IMG/VR virus record: IMGVR_UViG_2713896768_000015
Source of the DNA: a virus
Lineage: Duplodnaviria > Heunggongvirae > Uroviricota > Caudoviricetes
DNA: 5,687 nucleotides
Direction: 5' to 3' (one strand)
Positions 1-5,687 of this stretch are shown one piece after another (the stretch's first letter is position 1; every line of letters starts with the position of its first letter). The notes under the pieces are model-generated. The model did no database searches. It worked only from the letters and a program-made list of their open reading frames with translations, and was not told where the DNA came from. A program made the position numbers and the translations under genes.

Positions 1-1
1 G

Positions 2-946
2 GCTTACAAAAACTTCTTCCGGAAGCGGGCTGCTTTTCCCCGATTCAAAAAGCGGGGACAGAATGATGCATTCCGCTACCCGCAGGGCGTTAAGCTCGAT
101 CAGGAAAACAGCCGTATTTTTCTGCCGAAACTGGGCTGGATGCGCTACCGGAATAGCCGTCAGGTCACGGGTGTTGTGAAAAATGTCACTGTCAGCCAGT
201 CCTGCGGTAAGTGGTACATCAGTATTCAGACAGAAAGTGAAGTATCCACTCCGGTTCACCCTTCAGCATCAATGGTCGGGCTGGATGCTGGCGTGGCTAA
301 ACTCGCCACGCTGTCAGATGGCACAGTCTTTGAGCCTGTAAACAGTTTTCAGAAAAACCAGAAGACGCTGGCGAGACTTCAGCGACAGTTAAGCCGCAAG
401 GTCAAATTCAGCAACAACTGGCAGAAGCAGAAACGCAAAATACAGCGACTGCATTCCCGTATCGCAAATATCCGCAGGGACTACCTTCATAAAGTCACAA
501 CGACCGTCAGCAAAAACCACGCAATGATAGTCATTGAGGATTTGAAGGTCAGCAACATGTCAAAGTCAGCAGCGGGTACGGTCAGCCAGCCGGGGCGCAA
601 TGTCCGGGCAAAATCAGGTTTAAACCGTTCGATACTGGATCAGGGCTGGTATGAAATGCGCCGCCAGCTTGAGTACAAGCAGCTCTGGCGTGGCGGTCAG
701 GTGCTTGCTGTTCCGCCAGCGTACACAAGCCAGCGTTGCGCGTGCTGTGGTCATACAGCGAAAGAAAACCGCCTGTCACAAAGTAAATTCGTGTGTCGGG
801 CTTGTGGATATACAGCGAACGCCGATGTAAACGGCGCTCGTAACATTTTAGCGGCGGGGCACGCCGTGCTTGCCTGTGGAGGGATGGTGCAGTCAGACCG
901 CCCGTTGAAGCAGGAACCCTCCGAAATGATTCAGGCGACAGCCTGA
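2..946 (+). CDS. tnpB: IS200/IS605-family TnpB (OrfB) transposon-associated RNA-guided nuclease, 5'-truncated by the window edge (C-terminal 314 aa visible)
   Basis: The open frame runs from position 2 with no stop until TGA at 944-946 (the ORF track starts at the first Met, 140). RuvC-like motifs are present: GLDAG (Asp at 284-286), IVIEDL (Glu at 536-538) and [11 protein letters not shown] (Asp at 824-826). A C-x2-C...C-x2-C zinc finger (QRCACCGH...FVCRACG) precedes the last RuvC motif. This is the typical TnpB C-terminal architecture. Confidence 0.9.
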
Positions 947-1030
947 ACATAGCAGGAATCCACACCCCGAAGAGCGTGGAGGATGTCACGCTGCCTCTTT
1001 AATGTTGGCGGCTATCCATGCCGCCGTGTG
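800..1030 (+). ncRNA. Candidate omega-RNA (right-end RNA) locus for TnpB; boundaries approximate
   Basis: Established knowledge: TnpB guide RNAs are transcribed from the 3' end of tnpB through the IS right end, with the guide taken from the flanking DNA. Nothing in the sequence lets me place the scaffold precisely; only the hairpins at 973-992 and 1007-1025 are seen. Confidence 0.25.
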
Positions 1031-1351
1031 CTGTTTAACCTGGTCCAGGTCGATGTATGTGCCAACATATTGACTCAAGTCCTGTAACGTACCGATAAAT
1101 GCATCAGTGCTCTGATCGACGAATTTATCAGCCAGGAAATCAGCAACCAGTTTTGGCACACCATCATGTACCGAAGGTTGTTTTTCCTCGCCACTACTGC
1201 CGCCGGACGCGCCGTACCCCATCTGTTGCATGATCTGGTCAATTTCATCGCTGATATCCAGCAACTCCATGCCACTCGCGGTAGCCGCTTTGGATATCAG
1301 AGCATCCAACTTATCGCTGAGATCCATTAACTCAATAGCTGATAGTGTCAT
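986..1351 (-). CDS. ddrA: Acidic 121-aa protein, last gene of the operon; positional equivalent of P1 DdrA (assignment by position only)
   Basis: The ATG at 1351-1349 overlaps the upstream gene's TGA (ATGA at 1348-1351), indicating translational coupling. The protein is Asp/Glu-rich with a Gly/Ser linker (GYGASGGSSGEE). The name rests on operon position and my recollection of P1, not on alignment. Confidence 0.55.
   Translation of the reverse strand: MTLSAIELMDLSDKLDALISKAATASGMELLDISDEIDQIMQQMGYGASGGSSGEEKQPSVHDGVPKLVADFLADKFVDQSTDAFIGTLQDLSQYVGTYIDLDQVKQHTAAWIAANIKEAA
1007..1025. other. Perfect 6-bp GC stem (GGCGGC / GCCGCC) with 7-nt loop
   Basis: Read directly: ggcggc (1007-1012), tatccat, gccgcc (1020-1025). 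It lies inside the last codons of the convergent 121-aa gene. Possible IS subterminal hairpin, omega-RNA element or transcript-end structure. No downstream U-run, so not a classic intrinsic terminator. Confidence 0.3.
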
Positions 1352-3267
1352 GCCGCTACCCCCGCTTTCTGGATTGCTACCAGCAGATCAGCCAGGTGGC
1401 GAGCAGCGCCATTAACCAGCTCTTCGTTTTCCTCAAAACGCCCGGCAGCCTGAAGGGCTGCAATCGCTTCCCGGACATTGCCCCGGGCGTTACGGATCTC
1501 CGCCATGTCAGTGCTTTGCATATCCATCACGTTATTGAGATATTCAATGGCTTTATTAGCCTCTGCATCTGCTTCGCTAACCGTTTCATCAGGCTGTGCC
1601 GGGGCCGGTTCTGGCTGAGTAATCTCACCGACTTCGGCCTGCAATGCATTGATCATGCTCTGCACCATTTTCTCGGTGCCAGCGCCCCCCGGAAACGCAA
1701 TATTGGGGAAAGTTTTTTGAAACTGAGTCTTCAGCATTACGCGGAACTCGTCTGGTGAGCTGGTGGCCAGCTCCAGAGCTTTTTGTGCATATTTGCCAAA
1801 CGGACCATTAGTAAGTGTCTTCGCCAGGAAGTCGAAAGAATCCTCGCGAGGCAATAACTTCAGGTCGTACTCACTCATTTGCTGATCAGAAAGCGGGGTA
1901 TCGTAAGTAGCAATGCCGTAGCGTGCATATTCATAATACGGGTCACCGTCATCAGGGCGCGGCAGAATTGCTTTGTTACCTTCAGGTATCGCGCCAGGGG
2001 CCGCCGGACGCATTTGCAGGGCATATCGATATGCACCTACAGAGACTTCTGGTTCAGGCGAAGAGCTACCGGTATCCTCCGCTGGTTCAGGTTCGACGTT
2101 TTCCGGTTTATGTTCTTCTGGTTGGACCAGATATTCCGATACATTACCCGCTTTATAGGCTTTAAACAGCTTGCCGAGCGCATCCGCCATGTCCACACCC
2201 TGTATGGATTTAGCCTTGATCATGTACACGCTGCCATCCGAATCGGTTAACTGGATATACCCTTCGCCGTCCCCAATGAATTGCTTCATTGATGCACCAT
2301 TACTGAGCGTCGCTTCCCCGTCCATATGCATACGATTTTTGATACTGGCAAGGCGATCCGTCAGCGCGCGAGAGTGTCCACCAGTCATCCCCGCTGGAGC
2401 AATGGTATCGCGCCCACCAGTGCGATTGAGCTGATCAATCTCCGTCTGCAAACGCTCATTCTCTTCATAAAGAGAATCCGCTTCCGATGCAACAGCGTTA
2501 ATTTTCTGCTCCAGATCTGCCTTCTGCCCTTCTACCGCTGCCACCTGATCCGCGAGGTCGCTCATGGCATCCTCTTTCTGGTCACTGTCAGCCTGTAGTT
2601 GGGTTATTTCATCAACAAGGGCTTTTTTCTTCTTCTGCGCACGCTGGAATTTTGCCGAGTTTTTCTCTGCAAGGTTGGCAAGTTTCATGGTGACCTGCGC
2701 CAGCGTCATATCACGTCCACTCATCGGAGCAACGGTGTGAGTAACGTCTTTTTTATTCAGTAAGAACTGGAAAGCAACCAGCGTATCGCTATTGGTGATC
2801 CGGTTTTCCGCTGTCGGGCTATGAAACAGAATGCTGATAGTCTGACCATCACTGAGCGGAATAATGGCTGGCAGGACTGGCAGCCCGTTAACGTTACGTG
2901 CCCGGCCAATTTCAGCGCCGCCGATCGCGCGCGCGCCGCTCTGGGCCACATCCCCCGTTTTATCACTCCCCGCAGATATTCCGGTACCATTCAGCTTCTG
3001 GTTCAATGCCCGGACAAATGCCTGCATGGTCCGGTGTAACTGCAAACGAGTAGAACTAATCGCCTCCAGTAAATCCGTAGCACACCAGTGGATCGGCGTG
3101 TCATAGAAGAACGTAGCCTCGATTTCTTCCAGGGTGTTGGATTCCGTCATCAGATAGCGGTCCTCACCGGCCATTAATGCGCGATATTCATCATCAGTCA
3201 CCGGCGGGGGAAGCACGTCAAGCCCCGGCTTAATCGTCACCCCTTTATTGATATTGAACTGTTCCAT
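1348..3267 (-). CDS. darA: DarA-like capsid antirestriction (defence against restriction) protein, 639 aa
   Basis: Start ATG at 3267 with AGGAA 6 nt upstream, 1 nt after the upstream gene's stop. The N-terminal ~210 aa share a domain with the preceding 200-aa protein (LxDGQxIxI ... KNSAKFQ). A coiled-coil-like charged segment (~aa 205-285) and two acidic Pro/Glu-rich linkers follow. Size and context match P1 DarA as I recall it. Confidence 0.8.
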   Translation of the reverse strand: MEQFNINKGVTIKPGLDVLPPPVTDDEYRALMAGEDRYLMTESNTLEEIEATFFYDTPIHWCATDLLEAISSTRLQLHRTMQAFVRALNQKLNGTGISAGSDKTGDVAQSGARAIGGAEIGRARNVNGLPVLPAIIPLSDGQTISILFHSPTAENRITNSDTLVAFQFLLNKKDVTHTVAPMSGRDMTLAQVTMKLANLAEKNSAKFQRAQKKKKALVDEITQLQADSDQKEDAMSDLADQVAAVEGQKADLEQKINAVASEADSLYEENERLQTEIDQLNRTGGRDTIAPAGMTGGHSRALTDRLASIKNRMHMDGEATLSNGASMKQFIGDGEGYIQLTDSDGSVYMIKAKSIQGVDMADALGKLFKAYKAGNVSEYLVQPEEHKPENVEPEPAEDTGSSSPEPEVSVGAYRYALQMRPAAPGAIPEGNKAILPRPDDGDPYYEYARYGIATYDTPLSDQQMSEYDLKLLPREDSFDFLAKTLTNGPFGKYAQKALELATSSPDEFRVMLKTQFQKTFPNIAFPGGAGTEKMVQSMINALQAEVGEITQPEPAPAQPDETVSEADAEANKAIEYLNNVMDMQSTDMAEIRNARGNVREAIAALQAAGRFEENEELVNGAARHLADLLVAIQKAGVAA

Positions 3268-3268
3268 G

Positions 3269-3871
3269 TTAATTTCCTGCTTTCAGTTGCTTAAGACGGC
3301 GTTTGAGTTCGCCATTTCGGGCCTTTTCGTTATTGAGTCGGCCTGTCTCCTTATCCAGCTTCGCCCGCAAATCAGTGATCTGCTGTTGATTGAAAGACAC
3401 CGAGTTCTGAGCTGATTTATAAGCGGCAACCACCTGAGCATTCCGCTGTTTTGCCTCTTGCAGGCGCTGAAAGTTGGATTTTACTGCCGGTTTCTTGTCT
3501 ACCGGATTGGCAACACGTTTCGCTTTGGCGATCAGTGATTTCTGGAATTTTGCGGAGTTTTTGCGGGCCGCTTGCCCCATGACGGTACCAAGCGTCTTGA
3601 TATCCGGCGACTGAGCGTTAGGAATAGCTTTTCCATTCAGCCTCACAGACGATATATCGCCAGTATCGTTTACCTGTATGGCAAGAATTTGTCCGTCGTT
3701 AAGAACCAGCTTTGCGGTTTTAACTTTAACGCCATCTTTCGTTGTTGCGCGGTTGCTGGAGTCAACCTCAATTACCGTAACACCGGTTTTATTGATCGTC
3801 GCGATAAGGGATTTCAGCCCCCTTTCATTAACCTGGTCAAAATCGACCGTTGCATACTTATTTTTCGTCAT
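3269..3871 (-). CDS. hdf: Hdf-like protein (homologue of the DarA N-terminal fragment), ~200 aa
   Basis: It shares the motif block with the N-terminal region of the 639-aa protein, including a 21-nt stretch identical at 20 positions (3542-3562 versus 2644-2664, encoding KNSAKFQ). The likely start is the second ATG (3871-3869), which has AGGA 8 nt upstream. The ORF-track start at 3880 has no usable spacing. The C-terminal half is basic and coiled-coil-like. Confidence 0.75.
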   Translation of the reverse strand: MTKNKYATVDFDQVNERGLKSLIATINKTGVTVIEVDSSNRATTKDGVKVKTAKLVLNDGQILAIQVNDTGDISSVRLNGKAIPNAQSPDIKTLGTVMGQAARKNSAKFQKSLIAKAKRVANPVDKKPAVKSNFQRLQEAKQRNAQVVAAYKSAQNSVSFNQQQITDLRAKLDKETGRLNNEKARNGELKRRLKQLKAGN

Positions 3872-4301
3872 CTGACACATCCTGTGCGAGATTTATTACG
3901 TAACTTCTGCGGATTTGCTGAGTAACAGGGAAAATCCGATACAACGGGTTAATGAACGAGTCGCCATGCGTAACCATGACGTTGAAATGCCACAGTCGTT
4001 CTCCTTTACCCATATATTCAGTGGGTATGTACAACCATTCACTGTTTTCGCCCTGTTCAGCCGACGTCAGACAACGTTGTTCGCCTTCAATCACTGTCGT
4101 TGGCTTCTGAACATCGCGGATCCAATATCTGACCGTTGCGCCGCGCAAAAACGGGAATTTAGACCGGTATTTGAACGGCACCCGGATGAAGCCCTGTTTA
4201 ATTTCCACATCACCAAGTTCTAAATGCGTGATGTCCTTGCGTTTTAGCAAATAGCGATCGGCTAAGGCTAACGCAAGAGCGCATACACCCCAGCCAATCA
4301 T
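3858..4301 (-). CDS. lydB: LydB-like protein (holin antagonist in P1), 147 aa
   Basis: The ATG at 4301-4299 overlaps the upstream holin gene's TGA (ATGA at 4298-4301), with GGGAGG 6 nt upstream. Hydrophobic N-terminus (MIGWGVCALALALA). Size and position match P1 lydB as I recall it. Confidence 0.7.
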   Translation of the reverse strand: MIGWGVCALALALADRYLLKRKDITHLELGDVEIKQGFIRVPFKYRSKFPFLRGATVRYWIRDVQKPTTVIEGEQRCLTSAEQGENSEWLYIPTEYMGKGERLWHFNVMVTHGDSFINPLYRIFPVTQQIRRSYVINLAQDVSDDEK

Positions 4302-4627
4302 TTCCCACCTCCCTTTTTCACCAAACTTGTAAGAACATTCAGAATGCTATCGATATTCACTCGTTTCATCCCTGAAATCACCTCATGACCGTTATTGCTG
4401 GCTATCGTTACCATTAAGTACGTAATTGATAACTCCCAGCCTTCGTGTTGCCCCAATAGGTACGCCACCGCGCCAGCTGTCACTGCAACAAAGATCTCCG
4501 TAACCAATCCCAACAAATTGCCAGACTGGCGACCGTCTCGGACATCCATCAGGAACGTGCCTATCCCACCAATTACTGAAAGCAGGAGCGCAATAGCAAC
4601 TGGAGCTAATTCCTGTGTGTCAAGCAC
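4298..4627 (-). CDS. lydA: LydA-like holin, 109 aa, three predicted transmembrane segments and a charged C-terminus
   Basis: GTG start at 4627-4625 with AGGAGG 6 nt upstream. Hydrophobic stretches LAPVAIALLLSVIGGIGTFL, LLGLVTEIFVAVTAGAVAYLL and LSITYLMVTIA, ending in KKGGGK. First gene of the coupled operon. Confidence 0.75.
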   Translation of the reverse strand: MLDTQELAPVAIALLLSVIGGIGTFLMDVRDGRQSGNLLGLVTEIFVAVTAGAVAYLLGQHEGWELSITYLMVTIASNNGHEVISGMKRVNIDSILNVLTSLVKKGGGK

Positions 4628-4958: not shown

Positions 4959-4984
4959 TATGGTTAAATCAAGGTTTAGGATTG
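4959..4984. other. Candidate invertase crossover site (cix/gix/hix-like 12-2-12 element) overlapping the invertase stop codon
   Basis: TATGGTTAAATC-AA-GGTTTAGGATTG. The right half matches the Din-family half-site pattern (reverse complement CAATCCTAAACC; compare hix TTATCAAAAACC and gix TTATCCAAAACC). The left half is weaker (TAAATC inner core). Confidence 0.4.
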
Positions 4985-5536
4985 AAATGATGACGCCGGA
5001 AACTTCTTATAAAGCGTGGAAACAGCCACATCATAGATGATTGCAACCTGCTTACGGGGGATGCCCTTCTCGAGCAATCGCCGCATTTGCTGCCATGTTT
5101 CTTCTTGGTATTTAGGCCGACGCCCACCTATACGACCTTCTGCGCGAGCTGCATCAAGTCCAGCGCGTGTACGTTCAACGATAAGCTCACGTTCCATTTC
5201 TGCCAGCGCCCCCATTACGTGAAAGAAAAAACGCCCCATTGGTGTACTGGTGTCGATGGAGTCAGTGAGACTCCGGAAGTTAATGCCTCTGTCACGCAGC
5301 TCTTCCACCAGCACAACTAAGTGACGCATGCTGCGCCCAAGACGATCTAACTTCCATACGACTAGGGTGTCACCTCTGGAAAGCATACGGAGAACCTTTT
5401 TTAACCCAGGGCGTTCAGCCTTTTTGCCGCTCGCCTTGTCCTCAAAAATTAGCTCACATCCTGCGCTTTCAAGGGCATTTCGTTGTAAAGCAGTGTTTTG
5501 TTCATTTGTTGATACGCGTACATAGCCAATTAGCAT
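4976..5536 (-). CDS. cin: Serine DNA invertase of the Gin/Cin/Hin/Pin (Din) family, 186 aa
   Basis: N-terminal MLIGYVRVSTNEQ with the catalytic Ser at residue 9, a resolvase/invertase catalytic domain (VWKLDRLGRS, MGRFFFHVMGALAEMERELI) and a C-terminal helix-turn-helix (GIPRKQVAIIYDVAVSTLYKKF). GGTGA lies 8 nt upstream of the ATG. The symbol cin is chosen from the P1-like context; family membership is near certain, the specific orthologue is not. Confidence 0.92.
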   Translation of the reverse strand: MLIGYVRVSTNEQNTALQRNALESAGCELIFEDKASGKKAERPGLKKVLRMLSRGDTLVVWKLDRLGRSMRHLVVLVEELRDRGINFRSLTDSIDTSTPMGRFFFHVMGALAEMERELIVERTRAGLDAARAEGRIGGRRPKYQEETWQQMRRLLEKGIPRKQVAIIYDVAVSTLYKKFPASSFQS

Positions 5537-5655
5537 ATTTTCTGCTCACCATAGTTATTCATAGCAAGCTGCGGATTTTAATTAACAGAAACCAGTGTGT
5601 GTGGAAATCACAAAGTGCATACCGTGCCCCAATGATGTTTTATTGAAAAGCGGGG

Positions 5656-5681
5656 TTACTTTAATGTTTGGTTTAAGAGAA
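5656..5681. other. Candidate crossover site upstream of the invertase gene (cixL-like), at the window edge
   Basis: TTACTTTAATGT-TT-GGTTTAAGAGAA. The distal half (reverse complement TTCTCTTAAACC) is a strong Din-family half-site; the invertase-proximal half is degenerate. It sits about 120-145 bp upstream of the invertase ATG, where gix/cix sites overlap invertase promoters. Confidence 0.4.
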
Positions 5682-5687
5682 CTTGGC

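Follow-up and report, generated by a model that had tools for sequence, protein, structure and literature searches.

A tnpB-only IS609-type element at the ddrA/ddrB junction of a P1-like phage genome, with a predicted guide against the uninterrupted junction

What an insertion sequence that encodes a TnpB protein has done to the antirestriction operon it abuts, and which DNA its guide RNA would address, are the questions raised by the left end of a 5,687-nucleotide stretch of a caudoviricete genome (IMG/VR record IMGVR_UViG_2713896768_000015; the whole stretch is called the window here). To the right of the insertion sequence (IS), the window carries a P1-type block of genes, assigned from the open reading frame list and from matches to annotated phages (Table 1). 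The gene adjoining the element is, by protein similarity and synteny, a true DdrA orthologue: its 121-residue product shows 4-5 differences from the DdrA proteins of P1 and P7, and the gene order (cin-lyd-hdf-darA-ddrA) is that of P1. The cin invertase segment, from the promoter region to cixL (window 4964-5644), is 96.9% identical to P1 and inverted relative to lydC, so that cin is co-directional with the lyd and dar genes in the window; cix-like half-sites stand at its two ends, TTAAATCAAGGTTTAGGA at about 4965-4985 and GTTTGGTTTAAGAGAA at about 5668-5683. Such an arrangement points to an inversion by Cin of its own gene, or to some other native gene order. The invertase genes of SJ46 and pIso270 lie on the same strand as that of the window, but are different alleles.

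Table 1. Positions of the genes, protein motifs and predicted RNA features in the window.
Feature	Position	Strand	Basis
tnpB (insQ-type), C-terminal 314 codons and stop (944-946); N-terminal ~88 codons beyond the left window edge	2..946	+	open frame, Pfam, NCBIfam
RuvC Asp I (GAT), equivalent to ISDra2 D191	284-286	+	alignment via SJ46 protein
RuvC Glu (GAG), equivalent to ISDra2 E278	536-538	+	alignment via SJ46 protein
RuvC Asp III (GAT), equivalent to ISDra2 D361	824-826	+	alignment via SJ46 protein
Zinc-finger (TNB) region; CxxC motifs 737-748 and 794-805	737..805	+	sequence, Pfam, alignment
Predicted omega-RNA scaffold	~843-989	+	32-sequence alignment, covariation
Predicted scaffold helix	843-848/981-986	+	alignment
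Predicted scaffold helix	851-856/862-867	+	alignment
Predicted scaffold helix, RAGATH-18-like core	873-877/910-914	+	alignment
Predicted scaffold helix	881-889/897-903	+	alignment
Predicted scaffold helix	932-936/941-945	+	alignment
Predicted scaffold helix	959-967/972-980	+	alignment
IS right end (RE), with a subterminal hairpin at 959-980; the cleavage motif at the terminus is TCAC (986-989), where chromosomal copies have TCAA	950..989	+	P1/P7 homology from 990
Predicted omega-RNA guide, 16-20 nt, GCTGCCTCTTTAATGTTGGC, antisense to ddrA 3' end	990-1005/1009	+	directly 3' of RE, ISDra2 paradigm
ddrA, 121 aa; the IS contributes its TGA stop (986-988) and, at 989, the third base of its final codon	986-1351	-	ORF list, P1/P7 comparison
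darA	1348-3267	-	P1-type block
hdf	3269-3880	-	P1-type block
lydB	3858-4301	-	P1-type block
lydA	4298-4627	-	P1-type block
lydC-like gene	between cin-like invertase and lydA	-	P1-type block
cin-like invertase	4976-5536	-	P1-type block (ORF list and matches to annotated phages)

Window 1-989 holds the right three-quarters of an element of IS609 type (IS200/IS605 family) that contains tnpB only. The complete element in SJ46 and pIso270 measures 1335 bp and consists of an 83-nt left end (CCAATGTGCC…GGGGATATAAGG), a tnpB of 402 codons and a 43-nt right end (RE), without tnpA. Of 5426 complete E. coli genomes, 4868 carry the same element at 93-98% identity, as a rule at two places, one of which is the K-12 insQ adjoining ydcO, that is, IS609. 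At the chromosomal sites ydcO, yedK and yfeD the element follows a left flank ending in TTAT and itself terminates in GGAGGATGTCAA; a TTAT left flank together with a GGAGGATGTCA(A/C) end is found at about 35 further loci, the RE motif being conserved at about 40 loci altogether. At four independent sites the element lies 3' of one and the same tetranucleotide (TTAT^, the caret marking the junction here and below), and it shows neither target duplication nor terminal inverted repeats, as expected for the IS200/IS605 family. The transposase is a different matter. A tnpA gene had been expected to the left of the window in the preliminary description, but no Y1 (HUH) TnpA is present in the 1335-bp phage-plasmid element of the relatives, whose left end joins 83 nt upstream of the tnpB ATG; lacking tnpA, the phage-plasmid form is a non-autonomous, tnpB-only derivative. 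The E. coli chromosomal copies examined contain a divergent tnpA that is a pseudogene, and intact tnpA genes (138-147 aa) occur in relatives from Serratia, Morganella, Klebsiella indica and Photorhabdus. In E. coli, tnpB outlives its transposase, an intact tnpB under purifying selection standing beside a tnpA pseudogene.

The tnpB-only form with its left end was found in 75 plasmids, in all of them at the ddrB/ddrA site, and a search for this left end at other plasmid sites gave a single partial match (85%) and no sign of further movement. This confinement to one site argues for one ancestral insertion. Counted among the P1-like plasmids of PLSDB, 72-75 carry the IS and about 356 do not (about 17% IS+), and the two alleles thus co-circulate. 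Backbone identity between IS+ and IS- genomes is 98-99% throughout, a value that is uninformative on vertical inheritance versus spread by recombination. The window copy itself is identical to no searched record, its best identity being 97.6-97.8%.

The insertion point was set by a junction alignment of the IS-free P1 and P7 with the IS-bearing SJ46, pIso270 and window. In megablast searches, P1, P7 and many P1-like phages match the window solely from position 990 onward, whereas SJ46, RCS47 and about 72 plasmids match it across the whole junction, with an ORF annotated insQ/TnpB there. The empty site reads ...CAT CCC TGT TAC GCC TTAT^GCTGCCTCTTTAATG... and the filled site ...GCCTTAT^[IS]^GCTGCC..., so that alignment to an IS-free P1-like dar operon, as had been recommended, rebuilds the empty P1/P7 site exactly, with no target duplication in the P1, P7, SJ46 and window sequences. 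The cut lies after TTAT and leaves the first two bases of the final ddrA codon on the ddrA side. On the ddrA strand, P1 has GAG GCA GCA TAA and the window GAG GCA GCG TGA: read on this strand, the IS terminus is GTGA, whose G completes the final codon and whose other three bases form a new TGA stop. DdrA is therefore unchanged, ending in ...NIKEAA in every genome compared. An altered C-terminus of DdrA is thereby ruled out. The earlier surmise that the IS had re-made this terminus is true of the nucleotides (third base and stop) and wrong for the protein, which ends in ...KEAA and a stop as in P1. Among the copies compared, the terminal C of the RE at 989 occurs in the phage-plasmid ones only. 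Two points of the preliminary description were confirmed, namely a gap of 39 nt between the tnpB stop and the convergent ddrA stop, which is exact (944-946 and 986-988), and a right end and guide in or just past the 3' end of ddrA, since the RE ends at 989 inside the last ddrA codon and the predicted guide at 990-1005 is the ddrA 3' end.

The gene named there as following ddrA in P1-type operons, ddrB, does so in P1 and P7 (where it is named prt), beginning 12 bp past ddrA. It had been suspected of being interrupted or displaced by the IS, and only the second part stands: in IS-bearing relatives, ddrB is displaced by 1.3 kb and directly adjoins the IS on its left as an intact 995-aa ORF with 98.7% identity to P1 DdrB, on which ground its disruption was rejected. 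An intact gene might nonetheless be expressed less, given that P1 ddrA and ddrB belong to a single late operon with a spacing of 12 bp, that the IS now separates the two genes, and that transcription of tnpB and omega-RNA would oppose read-through; 1.3 kb of antisense, convergent DNA could in this way lower the expression of ddrB (and hxr) and alter the Dar antirestriction phenotype. We consider such polarity unlikely, because ddrB retains its own ATG and the upstream ATAAGGCGTAACAGGG, terminator-like sites in the IS are not commoner than in shuffled sequence, ddrB is constrained in IS+ genomes (98.7% identity, intact) and the IS+ allele is common. The underlying promoter and terminator scan of the SJ46 element, with counts not above those of shuffled sequence, is in itself uninformative on omega-RNA promoters or polarity.

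On the plus strand, the frame at 2..946 stays open for 315 codons and continues beyond the left window edge. Its product matches the Pfam families OrfB_IS605 (PF01385; 119.8 bits, 1e-34) and Cas12f1-like_TNB (PF07282; 86.3 bits, 2e-24), as well as the NCBIfam model NF040570, 'RNA-guided endonuclease TnpB', at 309 bits (cutoff 100). Having both the RuvC-like OrfB_IS605 domain and the zinc-ribbon TNB domain, the protein is by domain content a member of the TnpB family and is predicted to cleave DNA in an RNA-guided, TAM-dependent manner. The catalytic residues were assigned through the near-identical full-length SJ46 protein, which phmmer relates to ISDra2 TnpB (PDB 8bf8/8exa) at E 1e-50. The three acidic codons are right and align with the ISDra2 catalytic residues, and both CxxC motifs are present, in agreement with the earlier remark that RuvC triad and zinc finger are intact. 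The full-length TnpB of the relatives has 402 aa, and its N-terminal WED/REC part, with the HTH_OrfB_IS605 domain (PF12323, 58 bits), is present in SJ46 and other relatives. A nuclease-dead, TnpB-like repressor of the TldR type was ruled out, the triad and zinc finger being intact and the relatives of full length. At the nucleotide level, the window tnpB is 96-98% identical to insQ of SJ46, RCS47 and E. coli chromosomes; dN/dS is 0.2-0.3 in all pairwise comparisons, indicating that tnpB is evolving under purifying selection, and the sole private coding change of the window copy, at 801, falls on a variable residue. Over its visible part (window 2-946), TnpB thus looks catalytically intact, and we are inclined to expect that the window protein is active.

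Evidence for the cognate RNA is comparative. The single-sequence fold of 760-1010 gave z = -2.3 and an unreliable MFE structure, and a comparative analysis was used in its place, with an alignment of the terminal 200 nt of 32 elements, drawn from Enterobacterales and from one Acidobacteriota MAG. The consensus structure, obtained with RNAalifold plus one added stem, comprises six helices. Within these helices, paired cells make up 96%, versus 40-51% when the partners are slid by 1-3 columns; compensatory changes are seen in 11 pairs, versus 2-5 in the controls, and the observed covariation was reached by no shuffle. A conserved, covarying omega-RNA scaffold is thus predicted to overlap the tnpB 3' end and the RE, with a flank-derived guide after it. 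The fold and covariance scan proposed in the preliminary description therefore had a divided outcome, the comparative alignment supporting a scaffold and Rfam giving only sub-threshold matches: the scan of 1-1400 (E ≤ 10) returned no family at its gathering score, but a sub-threshold match to RAGATH-18 at 873-916 (28.1 bits, gathering score 44.9, E 0.009) and two matches at chance level. RAGATH-18-derived RNAs are known guides of IS607 TnpBs (PMC11061315). The CCUGUGGAG...GAAGCAGGAA core in the window aligns to both ends of the RAGATH-18 model (Rfam RF03064), but its internal part is much shorter and, scoring below the gathering score, it is not a member of the family as Rfam defines it.

The guide was placed directly 3' of the RE after the ISDra2 paradigm (PMC8612924). 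TTAT followed by the 20-nt guide sequence matches the P1 and P7 stretches compared exactly, once in each, at the uninterrupted ddrB-ddrA junction. Genomes with the IS have ...GTCAC where the TAM would stand, by which the IS+ allele would be immune. Directly after the 16-nt guide, a GC-rich hairpin (GGCGGC TATCCAT GCCGCC) with a weak T-containing tail lies at 1006-1026 on the plus strand. Its position is probably coincidental, as it is native P1 ddrA coding sequence, and it could influence the omega-RNA 3' end.

The window copy departs from its relatives at the right end. Subterminal hairpins are clear in the relatives (-6.4 kcal/mol in SJ46, -7.7 in K-12 and -12.1 in pIso270), with compensatory changes, whereas the window hairpin, at -2.8 kcal/mol, is the weakest among the copies compared; with 2 mismatches in 9 bp, one from the private change G973A and one of the SJ46 type, it folds no better than shuffled sequence (z -0.05). 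The weakened hairpin could impair the last stem of the predicted scaffold. It also fits the idea that the insertion is a passively inherited relic, immobile without tnpA, whose TnpB and omega-RNA no longer function in this lineage, as do the loss of tnpA from all phage-plasmid copies, the tnpA pseudogene in all E. coli chromosomal copies examined, and the occurrence of the tnpB-only form with its left end at one site alone. We nevertheless find a relic rather doubtful, inasmuch as the tnpB ORF is intact in 70+ plasmids and in thousands of chromosomes, the dN/dS values are low, the catalytic residues are preserved, the RNA structure is conserved and covarying, and the one private amino-acid change of the window protein is at a variable position.

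Site by site, the window carries chromosomal-insQ variants from 1 to about 790 and SJ46-type variants, including the terminal C, from 791 to 989. By its pattern of variants, the window copy is a mosaic of SJ46-type and chromosomal insQ-type sequence with a breakpoint near 790, and the copy in pIso270, which occupies this site too, is patched together differently. Such differing mosaics at a single ddrA site point to repeated gene conversion between phage-plasmid and chromosomal IS609 copies, and the simplest account would be a single insertion of the SJ46 type, into which chromosomal IS609 copies in E. coli hosts later introduced patches by gene conversion. The larger left part of the window copy, which is 97.7% identical to chromosomal insQ and 96.4% to SJ46, might instead reflect a separate event in which a chromosomal-type IS609 entered this TTAT site anew. 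This we judge very improbable, in view of the shared terminus and of the absence of a working tnpA from E. coli: the stretch 791-989 is of the SJ46 type down to the C at 989, which among the copies compared is a mark of the phage-plasmid ones, pIso270 with its other patchwork has an SJ46-type left end, and the E. coli chromosomal copies are without functional tnpA.

Taken as a whole, it is very likely that the locus is explained by a tnpB-only IS609 insertion at the ddrA/ddrB junction, an omega-RNA directed against the IS-free allele, and later mosaicism. In this account, a single event of 'peel and paste' transposition, which works on single strands, brought the element to the position 3' of TTAT where ddrA and ddrB met in an ancestral P1-like phage-plasmid. 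The comparison with IS-free genomes shows that ddrB was pushed 1.3 kb downstream and stayed intact, with DdrA unchanged. The tnpB 3' end and the RE would encode the omega-RNA scaffold, whose structure is shown by covariation and whose transcription we infer, and the 3' extension of the scaffold, from 990 to about 1005, would be the guide. From the established TnpB mechanism, TnpB with this omega-RNA is expected to cut DNA bearing TTAT and then GCTGCCTCTTTAATGT, a target that is the uninterrupted ddrB-ddrA junction in P1, P7 and most P1-like plasmids, the IS+ allele presumably being immune through replacement of its TAM by the RE. The outcome would be retention of the IS and gene-drive-like spread among co-resident P1-like genomes, and the copies at the ddrA site would then have exchanged patches with chromosomal E. 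coli insQ copies.

A further-reaching reading, to which we give limited credence, is that the element acts as an RNA-guided weapon and gene drive between P1-like phage-plasmids and that, independently, the RE (…GTCAA/C, complement N-TGA) has evolved as a 'stop-codon patch'. If the former were true, an IS+ prophage would cut incoming or co-resident IS-free relatives, leading to their exclusion or to conversion by recombination; if the latter, the IS would occupy TAA stops lying in the TAM complement (ATAA) without harm to the host gene. The copy number of the P1 prophage, about 1, weakens the advantage of a drive (PMC11870625).

The sites of the IS609 group bear on the stop codons. Convergent genes likewise follow the element at ydcO, yedK and yfeD, each annotated as ending in the IS-borne TGA, 39 nt past the tnpB stop. 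In the reconstructed empty sites, the TAM complement (ATAA) holds the native stop: GC^A TAA at ddrA and yfeD, TA^A at ydcO and TG^A TAA at yedK. Across the group, the RE carries an in-frame TGA that re-supplies the stop, adding 0-1 residue, at ddrA, yfeD, ydcO, yedK and four further loci; the place concerned is 986-989 in the window and, in the E. coli chromosomal stretches, at 3733-3736 or, in two of them, at 3486-3489. A convergent ORF of at least 100 codons ends at the IS-borne stop at 8 of about 34 unique sites, versus one site for each of the other two frames. Flanking DNA gives a null expectation of 2.5% for TTAT sites as a whole and of 10% for those where insertion breaks no ORF. A strong targeting preference for stop codons was set aside, since the pattern is real but, given the 10% of tolerable sites, is mostly survivorship. 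The TAM and right end of the IS609 group illustrate how an insertion on a stop codon can be harmless.

It is worth comparing the element with those already described. IS609 copies in the P1-like plasmids pJIE250-3 and pSvP1 were reported by Venturini et al. 2019 (PMC6906374). The cleavage sites given there for IS609, TTAT/TCAA, agree with the sites found here, as does the TTAT TAM used for purified IS609 TnpB (PMC12781874 supplement). For IS609, the text and supplements of PMC12781874 give the protein and a TTAT-flanked guide only and contain no statement on its activity. IS609 (K-12 insQ, pJIE250-3, pSvP1) resembles the window element in its TnpB (about 91-98% identity), its TTAT left site/TAM, its RE sequence and its habit of abutting a convergent gene at the 3' end; in phages SJ46 and RCS47 insQ is annotated at the very same site; the phage-plasmid form differs from IS609 in having no tnpA, a variant left end, and an RE ending in TCAC in place of TCAA. 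The TnpB-omega-RNA complex of ISDra2 from Deinococcus radiodurans (PDB 8exa, 8h1j; Karvelis 2021, PMC8612924) shares with the window protein the domain order and alignable catalytic residues and zinc finger, and with the predicted RNA its origin from the tnpB 3' end and the RE, a guide directly 3' of the RE, and a TAM equal to the TnpA target site. However, the sequence similarity to ISDra2 is distant, its TAM is TTGAT against TTAT here, and tnpA, divergent in the full-length IS609 relatives, is absent from the phage-plasmid form.

The relation of the element to P1 and P7 is exactly that in the plasmid TnpB gene drive of Mears et al. (2025 preprint, PMC11870625), where the guide of an IS+ plasmid matches the IS- version; here, in contrast, the carrier is a low-copy phage-plasmid, the IS is without tnpA, and the drive is a prediction. 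Existing annotation or publications already cover the element with its ends and TAM, as well as its occurrence in P1-like phage-plasmids, and the function proposed is that of the published TnpB model (PMC8612924, PMC11870625). The present additions are small, namely the exact insertion point with regeneration of the stop, the relation of guide and target to P1/P7, the mosaic copy and the weakened RE hairpin; as a discovery, an ordinary, catalogued IS609-type element with a standard TnpB mechanism carries little weight. The analysis corrects the idea of a damaged dar operon, ddrA being unchanged and ddrB intact in the relatives. With about 17% of the PLSDB P1-like plasmids counted being IS+ and the rest carrying a perfect target, it also offers a natural test case for TnpB-driven competition between close phage-plasmids.

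Sequences of the same tnpB were met in other phages under other names. Morganella phage IME1369_01 (KY653118.1; positions 1798-2946 of the stretch compared) carries it annotated as 'putative virulence protein', the filamentous phage If1 (NC_001954.1/U02303.1, 6409-7055) contains a fragment within ORF348, described as 'homologous to eryA', and a 291-bp piece is found in Aeromonas phage AP1 (MT713136.1). All three look like unrecognised IS609-type insertions or misannotations.
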